Part shown: piece after piece, positions 931-13,787 of the stretch | How positions within the stretch are numbered: the first letter of the stretch is position 1 | How the letters are laid out: each line of letters begins with the position of its first letter | IMG/VR virus record: IMGVR_UViG_3300036943_000626 | Coordinates: 1-13,787 of that record | Length of the DNA: 13,787 nt | Source of the DNA: a virus | Direction: 5' to 3' (one strand) | Program-made: the position numbers and the translations under genes | Notes under the pieces: generated by a model | What the model saw: only the letters and a program-made list of their open reading frames with translations | What the model was told of the DNA's origin: nothing | Databases searched by the model: none

Positions 931-1206
931 TTACATTTTTTGAACCAAATCTCCGTTGAAGACAACTGCTATTCCAAAATTTCTTTTTTCTTTTTCTTTT
1001 GTTTTTTTGTCTTTTGTTTCTCCAATTTTCCAAATTCTCACACCCTTTCCTTTTGCTCCAACCAATTTCAAGCCCAACATTCTTGCTTGAACAAAAGTGA
1101 TCCATTCGTTGCTTTTATATCCCTCATTTTCTTTGACTTCTTGAAGAACATCCTGATTTCTCCCTTGATACTCTTTTTTTGACATTTTGTTTATTTGTTG
1201 TTTCAT
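931..1206 (-). CDS. Small ArdC-N / DUF1738-like protein (putative ssDNA-binding or anti-restriction), 91 aa
   Basis: EGYKSNEWITFVQARMLGLKLVGAKGKGVRIW...IAVVFNGDLVQ resembles, from memory, the ArdC N-domain hallmark W-x-T-F-x-Q-A-x-x-L-G-x-x-V-x-K-G-x-K-G ... V-F-N-x-x-Q. It is the only minus-strand gene and has its own terminator. Confidence 0.5.
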   Translation of the reverse strand: MKQQINKMSKKEYQGRNQDVLQEVKENEGYKSNEWITFVQARMLGLKLVGAKGKGVRIWKIGETKDKKTKEKEKRNFGIAVVFNGDLVQKM

Positions 1207-1274
1207 TTTTTTTATTTAAATTTTTATTAAAAAAAATGTTTCATAGGCAATTTTCTTAATTCTTATGTCTGTTA

Positions 1275-1367
1275 TTAAACAACTGATTGCTTATATCAAA
1301 TCAAGGTGGAGATTGACGAACAGAGTGAAGTCAATACTACCTTGAATTGATATAAGCTGTTGTTAAA
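1275..1367. repeat. Long imperfect inverted repeat (about 93 nt, over 30 bp of pairing) in the divergent intergenic region
   Basis: gcttatatcaaatcaaggt (1289-1307) pairs with accttgaattgatataagc (1339-1357) with one mismatch. There is an inner attgac/gtcaat pair and an outer aacaac/gttgtt pair. Confidence 0.8.
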
Positions 1368-1393
1368 ATAAAAAGACTAAGAATTAAAAAAAC

Positions 1394-1422
1394 TTGACTT
1401 ATTATTTGCTTTAATTTAAAAT
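1394..1422 (+). promoter_or_regulatory. Sigma70-type promoter TTGACT-17-TAAAAT
   Basis: TTGACT at 1394-1399, a 17-nt spacer, TAAAAT at 1417-1422. It lies about 175 nt upstream of the 1599 ATG. Confidence 0.6.
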
Positions 1423-1457
1423 GTTGATAACTAAAGAAAGAAGAAGCAAGAAAGAAA

Positions 1458-1507
1458 GCTAGACATTCTTCTAGCGATCCTTTCGACTCGTCTAGCTAGA
1501 AGCTAGT
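1458..1507. promoter_or_regulatory. Cluster of CTAG-centred palindromes in the 5' leader (candidate operator or structured leader)
   Basis: gctaga-cattct-tctagc hairpin at 1458-1475, a perfect 10-bp palindrome tctagctaga at 1491-1500, gctagt at 1502, and actagac at 1538. Confidence 0.45.
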
Positions 1508-1598
1508 AAGCGAAACCTATTCTATGAGTTTTTTTTACTAGACTTTCTTCTCTCTTTCATTCTTTTTTTAAATTTTTTTAACAAACTAACATCTAACC

Positions 1599-2192
1599 AT
1601 GACTAAACCCGCAAACGAACCAAACGACAAACTTTCTCCCAAAAACTTGACTTCAACTTTCCCGAATTCTCCTCTCTGTCGTTCTTCTTGTATCACTTGC
1701 AGTTCTCCTTATTTACAAGAAATTCATAAAATGAGGTATGATGATAAAATGTATTTAAAAGATATTTCCGCGAAATTAGAAAAAGAATTTGGCGAAAAAA
1801 TCTCTTATTCTGCTTTACATAGGCATTTTACTAACTTTAATAAAAATATAAAAAGGGCTGTCGAAACTAAAATGATTAAATATCTTGAAGAAGATGTTGA
1901 CCAACGGGCGCAACATTCTGCTAAATTGACAACTTTGATTAATGCTATGTTTGACAAATTGGCTCAAAACTGGCAAGATGTTGCACCAACTATTGAAAAC
2001 TTGGAAAAATTGACAAAATTGAGATATTTGGTTATGGAAAATAAAATTTCAATGGGTGATTATGATGAACAAATTAAGTTGATTATTAAAAATGCTGAAA
2101 ATGTTGATGCAAGACAATTAAGTTTATTTTCCCCCGAAGCAATTACTCAAAAACCAGAAGAAGAAAACAGAGGGGTTGCTGACGAGCAATAA
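1599..2192 (+). CDS. Zn-ribbon + helix-turn-helix-like DNA-binding protein; positional candidate for small terminase subunit or late regulator
   Basis: CRSSCITC followed by YLKDISAKLEKEFGEKISYSALHRHFTNF (Cys cluster plus an IS..AL.RH HTH-like pattern seen in some phage TerS or regulator proteins), a coiled-coil-like middle and an acidic tail. It is the last ORF before TerL. Confidence 0.45.
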   Translation: MTKPANEPNDKLSPKNLTSTFPNSPLCRSSCITCSSPYLQEIHKMRYDDKMYLKDISAKLEKEFGEKISYSALHRHFTNFNKNIKRAVETKMIKYLEEDVDQRAQHSAKLTTLINAMFDKLAQNWQDVAPTIENLEKLTKLRYLVMENKISMGDYDEQIKLIIKNAENVDARQLSLFSPEAITQKPEEENRGVADEQ

Positions 2193-2230
2193 AACCTAAA
2201 AGGGGGTTTGGGGGAAGCCCCCATTAAGAA

Positions 2231-2292
2231 CCGCCGCTGAATTTTAAGGTTTTTTTCGAGGAGGGACGACGAGAAAAAAACCGTTAAGGCGG
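2231..2292. repeat. Stem-loop
   Basis: ggttttttt (2248-2256) pairs with aaaaaaacc (2274-2282), flanked by ttaa/ttaa and ccgcc/ggcgg. Confidence 0.7.
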
Positions 2293-2351
2293 AATGGAGG
2301 GGGTGAGCCGACCAGCGGGAGGCGAACAAGGAGCGTAGCGACCACCATTCC
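2291..2351. repeat. Stem-loop followed by the CCGACACACC tail
   Basis: ggaatggagg pairs with ccaccattcc (7+2 bp with one A.A mismatch). The loop carries GAGCGTAGCGACC. Confidence 0.6.
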
Positions 2352-2376
2352 CCGACACACCTTCGCCAAGGGGTAT

Positions 2377-2471
2377 GCGGGGAGGAAAGGAGGGGCTTGC
2401 CGGGCGAGAAAAAATAAGAAAAAGAGGAGCGAATGCGACCTTTTTCTTTTTTTCTCCTTTCCACTCCCCGC
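2377..2471. repeat. 95-nt two-tier hairpin with polypurine/polypyrimidine arms
   Basis: gcggggag..gaaag pairs with ctttcc.a.ctccccgc, and gagaaaaaataagaaaaagagg pairs with cctttttctttttttctc. The apical loop is agcgaatgcga. Confidence 0.75.
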
Positions 2472-2506
2472 AAAAAATGAGCGAATGACGAGTTTCAAAA
2501 CCCGAA

Positions 2507-2537
2507 CCTCCCCCGACCAAAGGCGGGGAGGGGGAGG
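2507..2537. repeat. Stem-loop
   Basis: cctccccc (2507-2514) pairs with gggggagg (2530-2537). Confidence 0.6.
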
Positions 2538-2546
2538 CAAAGTGAA

Positions 2547-2592
2547 GGGCGGGAGCGGAATTCAACAAAAACCTACATCTCCGCTCCCGCCC
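2547..2592. repeat. Stem-loop with a perfect 13-bp GC-rich stem
   Basis: gggcgggagcgga (2547-2559) pairs with tccgctcccgccc (2580-2592). Confidence 0.85.
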
Positions 2593-2687
2593 TGAACGGC
2601 AAGAGCGAACACCTTATTTTGAAATTTTTAAAACCAGTTACCCCCCTTGGGGGGGTTAGGGGGGGAATATGAAATAATTTTTTTATG

Positions 2688-2796
2688 TCGCACAACACAG
2701 ATTCTTGCGACATTATGGAAACAAACAAAAACCGACCCTCACAGGAAGCGGTTTTTGATTTGTTTCCAAATGTTTCGCAAAATCTATGTTGTGCGA
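2688..2796. repeat. 109-nt rod-like element: an outer helix of about 21 bp enclosing an 18-bp helix
   Basis: tcgcacaacacagattcttgcga (2688-2710) pairs with tcgcaaaatctatgttgtgcga (2775-2796) with one mismatch and one bulge. The inner pair is ggaaacaaacaaaaaccg (2717-2734) with cggtttttgatttgtttcc (2749-2767). Confidence 0.8.
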
Positions 2797-2801
2797 GTCA
2801 A

Positions 2802-2842
2802 GCCAATGAAACACAATATAAAATTTATAAAAATTCATTGGC
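2802..2842. repeat. Stem-loop
   Basis: gccaatgaa (2802-2810) pairs with ttcattggc (2834-2842); the loop is AT-rich. Confidence 0.7.
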
Positions 2843-2883
2843 GAAGACCTTGCATAAAAAAACACCTTGAGGGAGAGGGGTTT

Positions 2884-2908
2884 GGGGAGAACCGCAGTGG
2901 TTCTCCCC
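2884..2908. repeat. Stem-loop (10-bp stem, 5-nt loop)
   Basis: ggggagaacc-gcagt-ggttctcccc, followed by attttaaa. Confidence 0.8.
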
Positions 2909-2922
2909 ATTTTAAAGAGCGA

Positions 2923-2987
2923 GGGAAAAGAGGAAAAAAAACTGTTGTGTGTCTATCTTAACAACAGATTTTTTTGACTCTTTTCCC
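2923..2987. repeat. Long hairpin, paralog 1 (loop contains TATCTTA)
   Basis: gggaaaagag pairs with ctcttttccc, A-run with T-run, ctgttg with caacag. The loop is tgtgtctatcttaa. It is followed by GAGCCACCGC plus ttttatataaaaa. Confidence 0.85.
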
Positions 2988-3013
2988 GAGCCACCGCTTT
3001 TATATAAAAAAAT

Positions 3014-3080
3014 GAGCGTAGCGAACACCTTTTAAATATAAACTAATGGAGCGAAGCGACCACCTTTTATTATATAAAAA
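3014..3080 (+). repeat. Two tandem short units (35 and 32 nt), each with a GCGNAGC mini-hairpin, a GA(A/C)CACC tail and a TATA-type linker
   Basis: gagcgtagcgaacacc-ttttaaatataaactaatg (3014-3048) is followed by gagcgaagcgaccacc-ttttattatataaaaa (3049-3080). Confidence 0.75.
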
Positions 3081-3086
3081 GAGGGA

Positions 3087-3151
3087 GGGGATTTGAGAAA
3101 AAAAGACTGTTTCGCGTTTATCTTAGAAACAGCTTTTTTTCTCAATTCCCC
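3087..3151. repeat. Long hairpin, paralog 2 (loop contains TATCTTA)
   Basis: ggggatttgag pairs with ctcaattcccc, gagaaaaaaag with ctttttttctc, ctgtttc with gaaacag. The loop is gcgtttatctta. It is followed by GACCCACCGC plus ttaatataaaaa. Confidence 0.85.
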
Positions 3152-3178
3152 GACCCACCGCTTAATATAAAAAGAGGA

Positions 3179-3237
3179 GTGATATTAAAAAGCAAATGTC
3201 TTTTTTGGAAAAAAAGTCTTTTGCTTTTTAATATCAC
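3179..3237. repeat. Long hairpin with a perfect 18-bp outer stem
   Basis: gtgatattaaaaagcaaa pairs with tttgctttttaatatcac, followed by GACACACC plus tacttatataaaa. Confidence 0.85.
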
Positions 3238-3274
3238 GACACACCTACTTATATAAAAGATGAGCCAAAAATAG

Positions 3275-3318
3275 GGAAAAGGTAGTTGAGTTGGCGAAAC
3301 TACCTTTTCCTTTTTTTT
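3275..3318 (+). terminator. Strong intrinsic terminator at the 3' end of the hairpin array
   Basis: ggaaaaggtag - 14-nt loop - ctaccttttcc (perfect 11 bp) followed by T8. Confidence 0.8.
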
Positions 3319-3345
3319 GGCGAACACCTATTATTATGTTAAAAT
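3317..3345 (+). promoter_or_regulatory. Candidate extended -10 promoter for the TerL/structural operon
   Basis: TTGGCG (3317-3322), a 17-nt spacer, TGT-TAAAAT (3337-3345), about 25 nt upstream of the TerL ATG. Confidence 0.45.
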
Positions 3346-3370
3346 GCAAATATAAATTTAAAACTAAACT

Positions 3371-4774
3371 ATGATAGCATTAAAAGATAAAATTAGTTTT
3401 GCAACTAAATTCTTTGATGTTAATGAAGAATATTTAAAACTTAATAGACACTGGCAGTCTTTTGATTATTATGTTTTGGCTGGTGGTGATCCTGTTAAAT
3501 ATGAAAATATAGGTTCACACCCTGGGCAATTAGATTTTTTGATAAACTCAATACACACTGAAAACTTATTACATTCTGGTAACGGATTTGGTAAGACAGA
3601 TATTATTGCACGCAAGCACTTAGTTAAACACTTAATTCATTTTTATGATCCACTCTTAAAGAATATAGAATATAAAACTTTGAATATTGCTATTACTAGA
3701 GAGCAGGCTGAGTTAGTTCAAGATAGGATAATTCAGTTAGTTCGCATTTCTCCTTTGCTTGGTGATTGGTTTATTAAGAGATATGTTAAGTCGCCAGTTC
3801 CTGAAATAGAATTTATTAATGGTGGTAAGATAGAATTTAAAACTACTAAACGAAAGGCTGAATCTGTTGAAGGTCATCAGTATGGCTATATCTCTGCTGA
3901 TGAGATAGCACTTGAGCCACACTTAGAATTTATTAGAGAAAAGATATTGTTGCCACGATTAAGAAAGTTTGAAGATGGTCAATTAGATTGGTTTGCTACT
4001 CCGAAAGGATTTAATTCATATTATAGAATCATGCAACAGATAAAGAGATCTGGTGGCTTTGTTCGTTCTGGTTCTAGTTATGAGAATCCACACATCAATC
4101 ATAAACTTTTAGATTATATGATTAAGAATTGGAGTAAAGATAAAGTTAGACAAATTGTTTATGGTGAGTTTGTTGATAATGCTCAATTTATGTTTGCTAG
4201 TAGGATTGATAAACTTATTGATTATGATCTAGGCTTTGAGAAAGTTAAACCTGATTCTAAATATATTGAGGGTTGGGATTTGGCAAGAGGTAAGAAAGGA
4301 GAGCAAGCCGACAAGACTGTTGGTTTTAGAATAAGAAAAGGAAAGCCTAATGTTATTGTTGATTGTTTTGCTTTTCAACTTCCTTGGACTGAAGAAGAAA
4401 GATTAAATTTATTAAAAGATAATAAAGAAAAACATAATTCATCTACTGAAAGAGAAATAAGAAACAAACAAAAAGAATCTAATTCAGAATGTTATATAGA
4501 TTCAACTGGTGTTGGTGATACTTTATTTGGTATGCTTCAAGATGTTGCCCAACCTGTTGACTTTCGAGGAAAAAAAGATAAAATACTAGAGCATGCACAA
4601 GCTGTTATTGATGCCGGACTTATTAAATGTCCTTTTATTCCCGAGCTTGTGGAAGAATTAACTACTTATGAAAGAGATGATAAAAATCTACCAACTGATT
4701 ATGTTATGGCTTTTTGTATCGCTTGCTATTCTATTCCTGTATTGGATTCGTTTATTGGAACTGTTGACATATAA
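3371..4774 (+). CDS. terL: Terminase large subunit
   Basis: Walker A HSGNGFGKTD, Walker B-like YGYISADEIA, and C-terminal nuclease-type acidic motifs IEGWDLARG and YIDSTGVGD. 467 aa, directly upstream of the portal gene. Confidence 0.9.
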   Translation: MIALKDKISFATKFFDVNEEYLKLNRHWQSFDYYVLAGGDPVKYENIGSHPGQLDFLINSIHTENLLHSGNGFGKTDIIARKHLVKHLIHFYDPLLKNIEYKTLNIAITREQAELVQDRIIQLVRISPLLGDWFIKRYVKSPVPEIEFINGGKIEFKTTKRKAESVEGHQYGYISADEIALEPHLEFIREKILLPRLRKFEDGQLDWFATPKGFNSYYRIMQQIKRSGGFVRSGSSYENPHINHKLLDYMIKNWSKDKVRQIVYGEFVDNAQFMFASRIDKLIDYDLGFEKVKPDSKYIEGWDLARGKKGEQADKTVGFRIRKGKPNVIVDCFAFQLPWTEEERLNLLKDNKEKHNSSTEREIRNKQKESNSECYIDSTGVGDTLFGMLQDVAQPVDFRGKKDKILEHAQAVIDAGLIKCPFIPELVEELTTYERDDKNLPTDYVMAFCIACYSIPVLDSFIGTVDI

Positions 4775-8097: not shown

Positions 8098-8121
8098 GGC
8101 GGTTTTTCCATAAAAAACCGC
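8098..8121 (+). terminator. Hairpin after the capsid gene (terminator or attenuator candidate)
   Basis: gcggttttt-ccat-aaaaaaccgc; the downstream T-run is weak. Confidence 0.45.
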
Positions 8122-8151
8122 TTCTAAAATCATTAAATTTAAATTAAAATT

Positions 8152-8346
8152 ATGGCAATTTTTAGACGAAGAAGTAAAGATTTAGAGGGTATTTCCAGTA
8201 CTGTTGTTGCTGGAAAAGAAATCAAGTTAATGGGTAATCAAGTTTATAAAACTAAAAATCCCAAAGAAATAAAGGCTTTAAGAGAGGATAGTGTTTTTTT
8301 TGAACTTCCTGTTAAACTTAAAGTAAAAGCTACTAAAAAAGATTAA
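8152..8346 (+). CDS. Hypothetical small structural-module protein (64 aa)
   Basis: ORF in the structural operon with basic termini. Confidence 0.55.
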   Translation: MAIFRRRSKDLEGISSTVVAGKEIKLMGNQVYKTKNPKEIKALREDSVFFELPVKLKVKATKKD

Positions 8347-8355
8347 TAAAATATC

Positions 8356-8958
8356 ATGACATTTAATGAAATGGAGGCCAAAATTCAGGCTCAAATTGAC
8401 GACACAACCACAAGTATTGACGAAATGATTTATAATTCCATTCGGTATTTATATAATTATTTTGCGCTTGAAGATTGGGATGACGCTTTGGTGACTGTTG
8501 CTGATCAAAATTTTATTGAAACTGGCCTCTCTGATGTTATTGATGTTGATGTTTTGATTTATAATGGTGAACAGATTGAAAAACTTGATGAAGATGATTT
8601 TGATAAAATTCCTCAATTTGTTGATAATAATGTTAGGCGATTTTATTTTCTTCAAGGTAAAATTTATTTTACTTTCACTCCGACAGAATCTGATTTAGAG
8701 GTTAAGGTTTTGAAGAAATATCAGTTTACTTTAGCAACTACAACAAATTCTCTAGATGTTCCTCCTGAACTTCTCGAACTGGTTGAACTTGGGGCTATTT
8801 CAAGATATTATTTATATTTACTTTCATTAAATGCAAGATCAAGAGAAGACTTGCCTGATGTCAAACCTGATGAGGTTCGGCGGGCTAAAAAGAATGTTGA
8901 TGATAGTTATAATTATCTTCTTAATGAGCTTCGTAATAATTCCAATTATGCGTTATAA
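8356..8958 (+). CDS. Hypothetical structural protein (possible head-tail adaptor, by position)
   Basis: 200 aa, acidic, located between the capsid and tail genes. Confidence 0.6.
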   Translation: MTFNEMEAKIQAQIDDTTTSIDEMIYNSIRYLYNYFALEDWDDALVTVADQNFIETGLSDVIDVDVLIYNGEQIEKLDEDDFDKIPQFVDNNVRRFYFLQGKIYFTFTPTESDLEVKVLKKYQFTLATTTNSLDVPPELLELVELGAISRYYLYLLSLNARSREDLPDVKPDEVRRAKKNVDDSYNYLLNELRNNSNYAL

Positions 8959-13612: not shown

Positions 13613-13787
13613 ACTACAACAAAACAATTCTAGCCGGAAGAATTTGTATTGATCCAAAAGTAAGGCTTACAAATTCAGGTTTGGCTGTTCTTCGAATCCC
13701 GATTGCTGTCAATCATTACAAAAAGAAAACTGATGGCGAAAGAGTTGAGGAATCCCATTTTTTTCAAGTTATTTTCTTTGGAAAACT
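13609..13787 (+). CDS. ssb: Single-stranded DNA-binding protein, 5' portion (runs off the window end; the true gene is 13609..13660 joined to 1..368, 420 nt, 139 aa)
   Basis: ATG at 13609 overlaps the TGA of the upstream ORF (ATGA). It translates MNYNKTILAGRICIDPKVRLTNSGLAVLRIPIAVNHY... and is in frame with the 21..368 ORF through the repeat. Confidence 0.85.
   Translation, partial: MNYNKTILAGRICIDPKVRLTNSGLAVLRIPIAVNHYKKKTDGERVEESHFFQVIFFGK
13661..13787. repeat. Terminal overlap copy B, identical to 1..127
   Basis: Same comparison as copy A. A length of 127 is typical of a maximum-k de Bruijn assembly overlap on a circular or permuted template. Confidence 0.95.

Follow-up and report, generated by a model that had tools for sequence, protein, structure and literature searches.

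A + strand array of hairpin repeats between the terminase genes of a small podophage: a candidate packaging-start element

Introduction

What does a row of hairpin-forming repeats do when it stands between two terminase genes? The question is raised by IMG/VR virus record IMGVR_UViG_3300036943_000626, a stretch of 13,787 nucleotides (nt) that we analyzed over its full length and call the window. A non-coding gap in the window separates the gene for a protein resembling the terminase small subunit (TerS) from the gene for the large subunit (TerL). A first-pass annotation, made from the sequence alone, had described six consecutive units in this gap, each a stem of any length followed by a GAxCACC tail, and had proposed that a protein or nuclease recognizes stem and tail together. 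Our data show that the array is real, non-random and specific to the + strand. Most probably the element functions as DNA whose + strand is folded, and we tentatively view it as a cis-acting, hairpin-forming DNA element of the packaging-start region by the terminase genes, and not as an RNA gene.

Results

The gap contains a strand-specific repeat frame

On reading the sequence we found all six of the described units at 2917-3328 and at least five more copies upstream, at 2296-2849. Two of the latter had been noticed as the tail behind a 2291-2351 hairpin and as an apical loop at 2428-2440; both are present, at 2296-2361 and 2426-2439. The shared frame is X-GA-[hairpin or GCGNAGC]-GA-X', followed by (N)CACC and a T-rich/ATATAAA linker. 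The linkers are palindromic, as had been claimed, and with the hairpin subtracted each unit measures 25-32 nt. The gap and its frame copies are:

2193-3370 (+): non-coding gap of 1,178 nt, from the TerS-like gene (1599-2192) to TerL (3371-4774)
2296-2361 (+): upstream unit G-GA-[GGGG...CCCC stem]-GA-C, tail ACACC
2330-2346 (+): mini unit GGAGCGTAGCGAC+CACC, enclosed by the upstream unit 2296-2361
2426-2439 (+): mini-hairpin G-GA-GCGAATGC-GA-C (GCGNNAGC type), read as GGAGCGAATGCGAC, in the apical loop of the hairpin at 2403-2469
2543-2596 (+): T-GA-[14-bp stem]-GA-A
2603-2613 (+): hairpin-less copy of the frame, GAGCGAACACC
2802-2849 (+): hairpin GCCAATGAA...TTCATTGGC, tail GAAGACC
2917-3013 (+): unit 1, GAG-C-GA-[65-nt hairpin, apical loop GTGTGTCTATCTTA]-GA-G-CCACCGC, linker TTTTATATAAAAAAAT
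3014-3048 (+): unit 2, T-GA-GCGTAGC-GA-A-CACC, then linker
3049-3080 (+): unit 3, G-GA-GCGAAGC-GA-C-CACC, then linker
3081-3173 (+): unit 4, GAG-G-GA-[65-nt hairpin, loop CGCGTTTATCTTAG]-GA-C-CCACCGC, then linker
3174-3261 (+): unit 5, G-GA-[59-nt near-perfect hairpin]-GA-C-ACACC, then linker
3262-3328 (+): unit 6, T-GA-GCC[...]GGC-GA-A-CACC

The closing positions X and X' are Watson-Crick partners in 10 out of 10 units of the window (G-C in six, T-A in three, C-G in one). We counted 13 bracketed hairpins on the + strand of the window and one on its - strand, against a mean of 1.03 and a maximum of 4 in 100 dinucleotide shuffles. GANCACC has 8 matches in the window where 1.95 are expected, a count reached by 0 of 200 shuffles, and its five matches in the gap are all on the + strand; about ten copies of CGA-N1-2-CACC or similar (9 exact by regular expression) also lie on the + strand without exception. 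Both the bracketed pattern and the recurrence of GANCACC are thus well above shuffled controls.

Folding of 2900-3345 gives z = -11 to -13 relative to shuffles, and the program TRF detects a tandem period of 35 nt x 2.4 at 3002-3087. Being almost perfect palindromes, the long stems fold no better on one strand than on the other; the strand-specific features are therefore the GA brackets, GNA caps and tails. The strand of action, which the first-pass annotation had left undecided, is now assigned to the + strand. Units 1 and 4 are paralogues with 77% identity. In unit 6, T8 (3311-3318) comes after the inner hairpin (3274-3310), an arrangement like that of a terminator, and the tail of this unit overlaps a sigma-70-like promoter for TerL (3317-3345). 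G+C and purine content are higher in the gap than in the rest of the genome.

The GA-bracketed mini-hairpin, not the tail, is conserved across the family

Every recovered locus of the phage family has a homologous gap of 0.36-1.6 kb between the TerS-like gene (~190 aa) and TerL. The nearest relatives by TerL identity are L061 (78%), L043, L063 and L008 (73-76%) and L006 (72%). Their frame consists of ATATAAA, 4-6 nt, (G/T)GAG, a hairpin or GCGNAGC, GA-N-(C/A)ACC, an optional GC, and TTTT. The stems inside this frame are unrelated to those of the window, and stems that are shared differ through compensated pairs; the L061 counterpart of the 2802-2849 stem, for example, is GGCACGGAA/TTCCGTGCC, with three compensated pairs. 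Because the frame is kept while stem sequences are replaced, any stem serves, which bears out the earlier proposal that stems of any length or sequence are interchangeable with GCGNAGC.

The tail had been proposed as the conserved part, and this holds for the window lineage only. In L061 the tails read GACCAACC, GAAAACC, GACAACC, GACCTACC, GAACACC, GAACACT and GACACTCC, and relatives carry AACC, TACC, CACC, CTCC and CACT variants. Outside the window lineage the tail loosens to GA-N2-4-CC, with the CACC form confined to that lineage: GA-N1-2-CACC occurs 19 times on the + strand family-wide versus 7 expected, and 9 of the 19 are in the window. What is conserved instead is the GA bracket with its GNA cap. 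In 26 gaps (26.7 kb), GCGNAGC is found 76 times on the + strand and twice on the - strand (3.8 expected), and GA-GCGNAGC-GA 25 times on the + strand and never on the - strand (0.08 expected), with a single occurrence in the other 188 kb. At the loop base N, A and G are found in 31 cases each, T in 13 and C in one. The closing pair is Watson-Crick in 30 of 34 cases family-wide and often extends into a longer outer stem, and the bracketed mini-hairpins mostly cluster 50-400 nt from the TerL start. The family-wide invariant is therefore the GA-bracketed GNA mini-hairpin, not the CACC tail. Homologous phages keep the frame while the tail degenerates, and of the proposed recognition of stem plus tail there remains a + strand-specific structure with a tail, which looks readable by a protein, with CACC no longer at its core.

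Copy number varies within the family. Near-identical strains differ in copies of a 33-nt unit (4.4, 3, 1 or 0), with the L043 tandem at 33 nt x 4.4, all in the same orientation. In L044, the position of the window array upstream of TerL is occupied by a tandem of 30 nt x 9.1 (2003-2273, 97% matches) that has no mini-hairpin. The array of the G+C-rich L050 has the form GAG-[G+C hairpin, GAA or GTA loop]-(A)ACCTA(A)GAG and no T-tracts. Contig breaks cluster in the gap, as the repeats alone would explain. We considered and set aside a Chi-like reading of AGCGG/GAAGCGG, as the covarying closing pairs point to structure over sequence, and a generic census of hairpins, made for flank logos, was too noisy to be of use.

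Motif arrays recur upstream of TerL in other viruses

We scanned IMG/VR for two GAGCGNAGCGA motifs 12-42 nt apart (loci L067-L186). Such pairs occur in at least 120 contigs, compared with an estimated 3-15 or so expected. The counts that follow apply to the matches listed, in which one contig belongs to the window phage family. In these 346 motifs, the closing pair is Watson-Crick in 77%, an outer stem of at least 3 bp is present in 27%, and a T-run follows the motif in 4.6%. At low-G+C loci, 185 motifs are intergenic versus 14 that are not. Motif strand is unrelated to that of neighboring genes (168 same, 219 opposite).

PHROG annotation of array neighbors identified TerL in 5-6 of 20 loci and a helicase in 2 of 20. 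By tblastn, 25 of the loci among the matches listed contain TerL, and in 22 of these the array lies 0.05-2.1 kb upstream of the TerL start. These 22 arrays span at least five TerL lineages, and only L176, whose copies are dispersed, has any copy downstream of the TerL start. Thirteen of the listed matches are circular assemblies: two are tailed phages of ~11.2 kb and 11 measure 2-4.7 kb. An HUH Rep protein, in most cases with a helicase domain, is encoded by six of the eight small circles scanned for open reading frames (L084, L093, L099, L145, L160 and L162). These six are therefore circular Rep-encoding single-stranded (CRESS) DNA viruses.

The array has signatures of DNA rather than RNA

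We favor DNA as the form in which the element acts because of its mini-hairpin core, an excess of triloops, the lack of GNRA bias, its mismatch spectrum, and the lack of any Rfam, tRNA or terminator match. The melting temperature of d(GCGAAAGC) and d(GCGAAGC) is 76.5 C, compared with 39 C for r(GCGAAAGC), and a 2-bp GCGNAGC stem is weak as RNA (PMC13037366). Such mini-hairpins occur as DNA at the complementary-strand origins of G4, St-1 and alpha3, at RSF1010 ssiA and in the promoters of the N4 virion RNA polymerase, and SSB (the binding protein for single-stranded DNA) binds them poorly (PMC13037366); the earlier link between the mini-hairpin and phage origins is backed by the same source.

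Within the family, triloops outnumber tetraloops 76 to 26. GNRA is not favored among the tetraloops (15 of 26 within the family; in the other viruses, loop position 3 is a purine in 17 and a pyrimidine in 23). Single mismatches in long Watson-Crick stems are G·T in 15 cases and A·C in 14, or 58 and 42 when shorter flanks are allowed; near-equal numbers of the two are unlike structured RNA. The + strand also shows an excess of G·U pairs, which we rejected as evidence for RNA because shuffles reproduce an equal excess, so that it is compositional. Searches of the window with Rfam (gathering and E-value thresholds) and ARAGORN returned no family and no tRNA, with only sub-threshold matches to microRNA-like hairpins. 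A standard scan for Rho-independent terminators in 1200-3450 (+) returned none; the tails stand between stems and T-runs, and only the unit 6 inner hairpin fits an intrinsic terminator. Two further RNA readings were discarded: inspection of the GA...GA bracket as a K-turn, K-loop or C/D box revealed no 3-nt bulge and no C-stem partner for CACC, and in a reading as RNase P substrate, tRNA minihelix or CCA tail the tail register does not fit NCCA.

The phage encodes few recognizable replication functions

The window is the complete 13,660-bp genome of a temperate podophage of Moranbacteria, in the candidate phyla radiation (CPR). Completeness follows from positions 1-127, which recur exactly at 13661-13787 as an assembly overlap. 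The encoded proteins include an SSB, TerL, an SPP1-type portal, an SU10-type capsid protein and adaptor, and an M23/LysM lysin. The TerS-like protein (1599-2192) has weak matches to Mu gp27/phrog_426 and a zinc ribbon/helix-turn-helix. Pfam and PHROG searches of the complete 13.66-kb genome found no polymerase, primase, helicase, initiator, integrase or HUH enzyme, leaving the SSB as the sole recognized replication gene. Shine-Dalgarno sequences are absent from the phage genes.

Relatives are integrated as prophages in Moranbacteria/Parcubacteria contigs, and TerL homologues are plentiful in metagenomes, many on contigs of 13-15 kb. GenBank phages, searched by DNA and by TerL protein, gave no match to the window, nor did an IMG/VR search with TerL and TerS peptide patterns.

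Packaging, priming or a transcript leader

How could such an array act in packaging? We suggest the following sequence. The ~30-nt repeats each contain a palindrome of arbitrary length, and on the + strand these palindromes would fold into hairpins with GNA-loop caps or tandem G·A brackets, as in the stable d(GCGNAGC). The readily melting TTTTATATAAAA linkers would favor extrusion or unwinding. The folded + strand would then display a regular row of stems, each with a short conserved single-stranded tail, GA-N-CACC, and a phage DNA-recognition protein would read this row to start or orient packaging, the TerS-like protein whose gene directly precedes the gap being the obvious candidate. Beyond the observed anatomy, strand specificity, DNA-type signatures, conserved frame and recurrence upstream of TerL, we thus infer extrusion, the identity of the reading protein and the packaging role itself. 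In favor of packaging, the array stands between the TerS-like gene and TerL in every family member, and its repeats are in tandem and in the same orientation with a period of 30-35 nt, about three helical turns. The arrays upstream of TerL in other phages, the hairpin-less tandem in the same place in L044 and the likeness to the T7 genome end speak for packaging as well. The first-pass annotation had named TerS among possible readers, and TerS is still viable in this role because arrays recur upstream of terminase genes in other phages; its part in packaging is what we propose here.

Several points weigh against a packaging role. The pac and cos sites described so far are recognized as duplex DNA, and none made of mini-hairpins is known to us. 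A single-stranded form, which to our knowledge a terminase does not need, is indicated by the strict bias to one strand and by covariation of the closing pairs. The same motif arrays are carried by CRESS viruses, which lack a terminase, and some adjoin helicase genes (the 2 of 20 loci above). Motif strand relative to TerL varies, being antisense in 16 loci and sense in six, and sense in the window family. The association with the region upstream of TerL could reflect the main non-coding region of small phages.

Much of this would sit well with single-strand initiation (ssi), a possible but doubtful reading that we rank slightly below packaging and that computation cannot separate from it. The array would then be an ssi- or sso-like site: a + strand that is single-stranded because it templates the lagging strand, or because rolling-circle replication displaces it, would keep its mini-hairpins free of SSB, and stem plus 3' tail would direct host primase or a PriA-type primosome. 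Such priming would offset the phage's lack of replication genes, its genome offering an SSB and an ArdC-N-like protein that may bind single-stranded DNA (ssDNA), with no polymerase, primase, helicase or initiator found. Consistent with this, d(GCGNAGC)/d(GCGNNAGC), a poor ligand of SSB, is present in the complementary-strand origins of G4, St-1 and alpha3 and close to RSF1010 ssiA (PMC13037366), and the primosome assembly site (pas) of phiX174 is a fork-like hairpin (PMC5778457). The fork-like layout of a hairpin with a conserved 3' tail, the DNA-type signatures, and the arrays found in circular genomes of CRESS ssDNA viruses and next to genes for a helicase or RNase H point the same way. Perfect DnaA boxes (TTATCCACA) number 45 and occur in 25 of 66 loci. 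Mostly they are located upstream of the TerS-like gene, where they cluster in many relatives, and immediately after the TerL stop codon; a fork moving rightward from the boxes upstream of the TerS-like gene would make the gap + strand the lagging-strand template. The window, however, has only a 1-mismatch form, TTATCAACA, in five copies on the - strand (1422, 4171, 5529, 6799 and 8619). Ten or more copies of the unit also far exceed known ssi elements, the L044 tandem array occupies the equivalent position with no hairpins, and a priming site does not predict that 22 of 25 arrays, among the matches listed, lie upstream of TerL.

An unlikely explanation is that the array works as the RNA leader of the late operon. 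The + sense terS transcript would fold into a tandem-terminator barrier, or into processing, stability or antitermination signals, that control TerL and the structural and lysis genes in the lysogen. The family motifs are indeed on the sense strand with all late genes downstream, prophage relatives must silence their lysis genes, and units 1, 4, 5 and 6 have A-tract/stem/T-tract layouts, the inner hairpin of unit 6 and its T8 standing just before the promoter-like site for TerL. The region also folds as RNA far better than shuffles (z = -13), but so does the - strand, equally well. The similar numbers of G·T and A·C in stems, with a compositional G·U excess, the dominance of triloops and lack of GNRA bias, the weakness of the 2-bp GCGNAGC stem as RNA (PMC13037366) and the lack of an Rfam match all argue against a transcript, and the loop statistics and mismatch spectrum likewise disfavor the RNA-processing endonuclease that had been suggested as a reader. 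T-tracts are missing from the L050 hairpins, and elsewhere a T-run comes after only 4.6% of motifs; there, among the matches listed, the motif is usually antisense to TerL and its strand unrelated to its neighbors (168 same, 219 opposite).

We consider it very improbable that the units are sites for an HUH/Y1 nuclease (hairpin plus tail, as in oriT-, Rep- or IS200/REP-like sites) or a decoy of the 16S rRNA 3' end, both of which had been raised earlier. HUH substrates classically consist of a hairpin with a conserved single-stranded tail behind it, and the motif-bearing CRESS viruses encode HUH Rep. Neither the complete 13.66-kb genome nor the prophage relatives encode an HUH or Y1 protein detectable with Pfam or PHROG, a nick site in more than ten copies would have no precedent, and the tail is not kept outside the window lineage. 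The likeness to the 16S 3' end (GAUCACCUCCUUA) fails on the CCUCC core, missing from all units, on the variable tails of L061, and on the lack of Shine-Dalgarno sequences in the phage genes.

A broader proposal, which we regard as speculative, is that arrays of GA-bracketed GNA mini-hairpins are a widespread, strand-specific and apparently undescribed cis DNA element marking the start of packaging or replication in small tailed phages and CRESS viruses, joined in this family of CPR phages with an integrase-free Xer/dif-type attachment site made of two inverted dif-like sites, as in CTXphi. Priming, packaging recognition and perhaps lysogeny of a tailed double-stranded DNA (dsDNA) phage would then proceed through ssDNA intermediates in folded form. 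If the array does signal packaging or priming through its structure, it reveals a way for a tailed phage of 13.7 kb that lacks replication genes to draw on the host machinery, and mini-hairpin DNA would become a general signature open to searches, no longer limited to a handful of model origins and promoters. Pairs of GAGCGNAGCGA, usually just upstream of terL, could help to locate pac or ori in uncultivated phages. The core DNA motif itself is already known; what is most interesting, and can best be tested, is that the element seems to be general upstream of terminase genes. The family is also a testable case of tailed prophages of CPR bacteria that apparently integrate at dif-like sites with no integrase of their own.

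Comparison with known systems

TerS-binding repeat arrays include the R sites of lambda cosB, pacL/pacR of SPP1 and the pac hexamers of P1. Like these, the window repeats adjoin terminase genes and several share one orientation. Unlike these duplex-read sites, the window array would rely on strand-specific hairpins and tolerates arbitrary palindromic inserts, and we know of no pac or cos site that does either. HUH relaxase and Rep sites, IS200/IS605 and REP sites share with the window a structure followed by a short conserved single-stranded tail, but the window encodes no cognate enzyme, has many copies and has a variable tail. At Streptomyces telomeres (3'-overhang palindromes) and parvovirus termini, adjacent one-strand hairpins are read by end-processing proteins. 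Like the window, these ends have GNA loops closed by sheared G·A pairs, e.g. CCCGCGGAGCGGG; they end linear replicons, with terminal proteins or self-priming, whereas the window genome assembles as a circle and integrates as a prophage.

The mini-hairpins of G4/St-1/alpha3, RSF1010 ssiA and N4 have the same cores as the window (GCGAAGC, GCGTAGC, GCGGAGC, GCGAAAGC and GCGATAGC; PMC13037366). As in G4 and N4, the window array is strand-specific, lies in a phage non-coding control region and belongs to a phage that encodes an SSB. In contrast to G4 and N4, the core is bracketed by tandem G·A pairs and a covarying closing pair, is repeated at least ten times in a tandem frame in which 60-nt palindromes can replace it, and stands between terS and terL of a dsDNA tailed phage with no primase or N4-type RNA polymerase. 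The phiX174 pas and plasmid ssi sites (PMC5778457) offer a possible parallel, as one-strand, fork-like hairpins with single-stranded arms that host replication proteins can use. Known pas and ssi sites are single or few and 50-100 nt long, and the window array differs in its 30-35-nt tandem frame.

T7 (NC_001604; L187 covers T7 1-360) has small hairpins and (A/C)ACCTAAAG short repeats (SRL/SRR) around its terminal repeat. These resemble the tails ACCTAAGAG and AACCTAGAG between GNA-capped hairpins in L050 (9890-9995): one-strand tandem short repeats ending in ACC-T..AAAG stand among small hairpins, in T7 at the packaging/concatemer junction. T7 differs in having no GNA or GA-bracket motif and in placing the repeats, whose function is unsettled, downstream of gene 19 at the genome end. 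The resemblance may serve as a lead, not a test. Literature searches on T7 short-repeat function and on small CPR podophages gave nothing usable.

The gap contains two inverted dif-like sites

The conserved central hairpin of the gap, which we had considered as a member of the repeat family, is a separate element built of dif-like sites:

2685-2799: central hairpin of two inverted dif-like sites, with 12 of 24 pairs covarying across 13 loci
2685-2712 (+): dif-like site A, ATGTCGCACAA-CACAGA-TTCTTGCGACA
2772-2799 (-): dif-like site B, GACTCGCACAA-CATAGA-TTTTGCGAAAC

Prophage relatives are flanked by 17-19-nt direct repeats (ACGTCGCACAATATATC, ACGTCGCACAATGTAGA, GCATGTCGCATAAGTTACA), located at:

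L048: 6969 and 20056
L050: 7797-7813 and 20401-20417
L058: 114 and 13914

The reconstructed attB, ACGTCG-CACAA-TGTAGA-TTTTG-CGAAGT, matches E. coli dif at 18 of 28 positions. These data suggest that a tailed phage for which no integrase of its own was found integrates in a Xer-dependent manner, like integrative mobile elements exploiting Xer (IMEX). The arrangement of sites A and B recalls attP1/attP2 of CTXphi, two inverted dif-like sites that may offer an analogy. The IMEX phages that we found in the literature were inoviruses, double jelly-roll phages and microviruses only.

Other features of the locus

The sole clear - strand gene (931-1206) encodes a 91-aa protein that matches the anti-restriction family phrog_7245 and has an ArdC-N-like ssDNA-binding region; with the SSB, it makes two putative ssDNA-binding proteins among ~20 genes. 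Just upstream of the TerS-like gene, a Cys-rich protein of ~76-78 aa (CPF...C...C...CPFQEL) is kept across the family. Pfam and PHROG gave no match for it; it may bind zinc and act in DNA binding or regulation. Its positions are:

Window: 610-840
L048: 7337-7573
L050: about 8120-8360

Sigma-70 promoters in the TATA linkers were considered and rejected, as no -35 element stands at a fitting spacing and good sites occur only at 1394-1422 and 3317-3345.

The apical loops of several long hairpins have G(Y)GT(Y)TATCTTA in common in at least four genomes even though the stems differ, and this loop reads as an expanded GCG...AGC cap. A kissing partner for the conserved apical loop TTTATCTTA was sought and dismissed, its complement not being enriched elsewhere in the genome. 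The loops are found at:

Window: 2951-2960 and 3115-3126
L043, L061, L063 and L006: hairpin apices

Finally, the family gaps contain triads of the form G4-5-(TTT/TTA)-G4-5-loop-C4-5 or the reversed C-G-G, with 25 on the + strand versus 0 on the - strand. Those in the window are:

2202-2222 (+): first triad, G5-TTT-G5-AAG-C5, directly after the TerS stop codon
2641-2665 and 2877-2908 (+): further triads

Either order of the triad would be compatible with an intramolecular G·G-C triplex or with a switch between alternative pairings.

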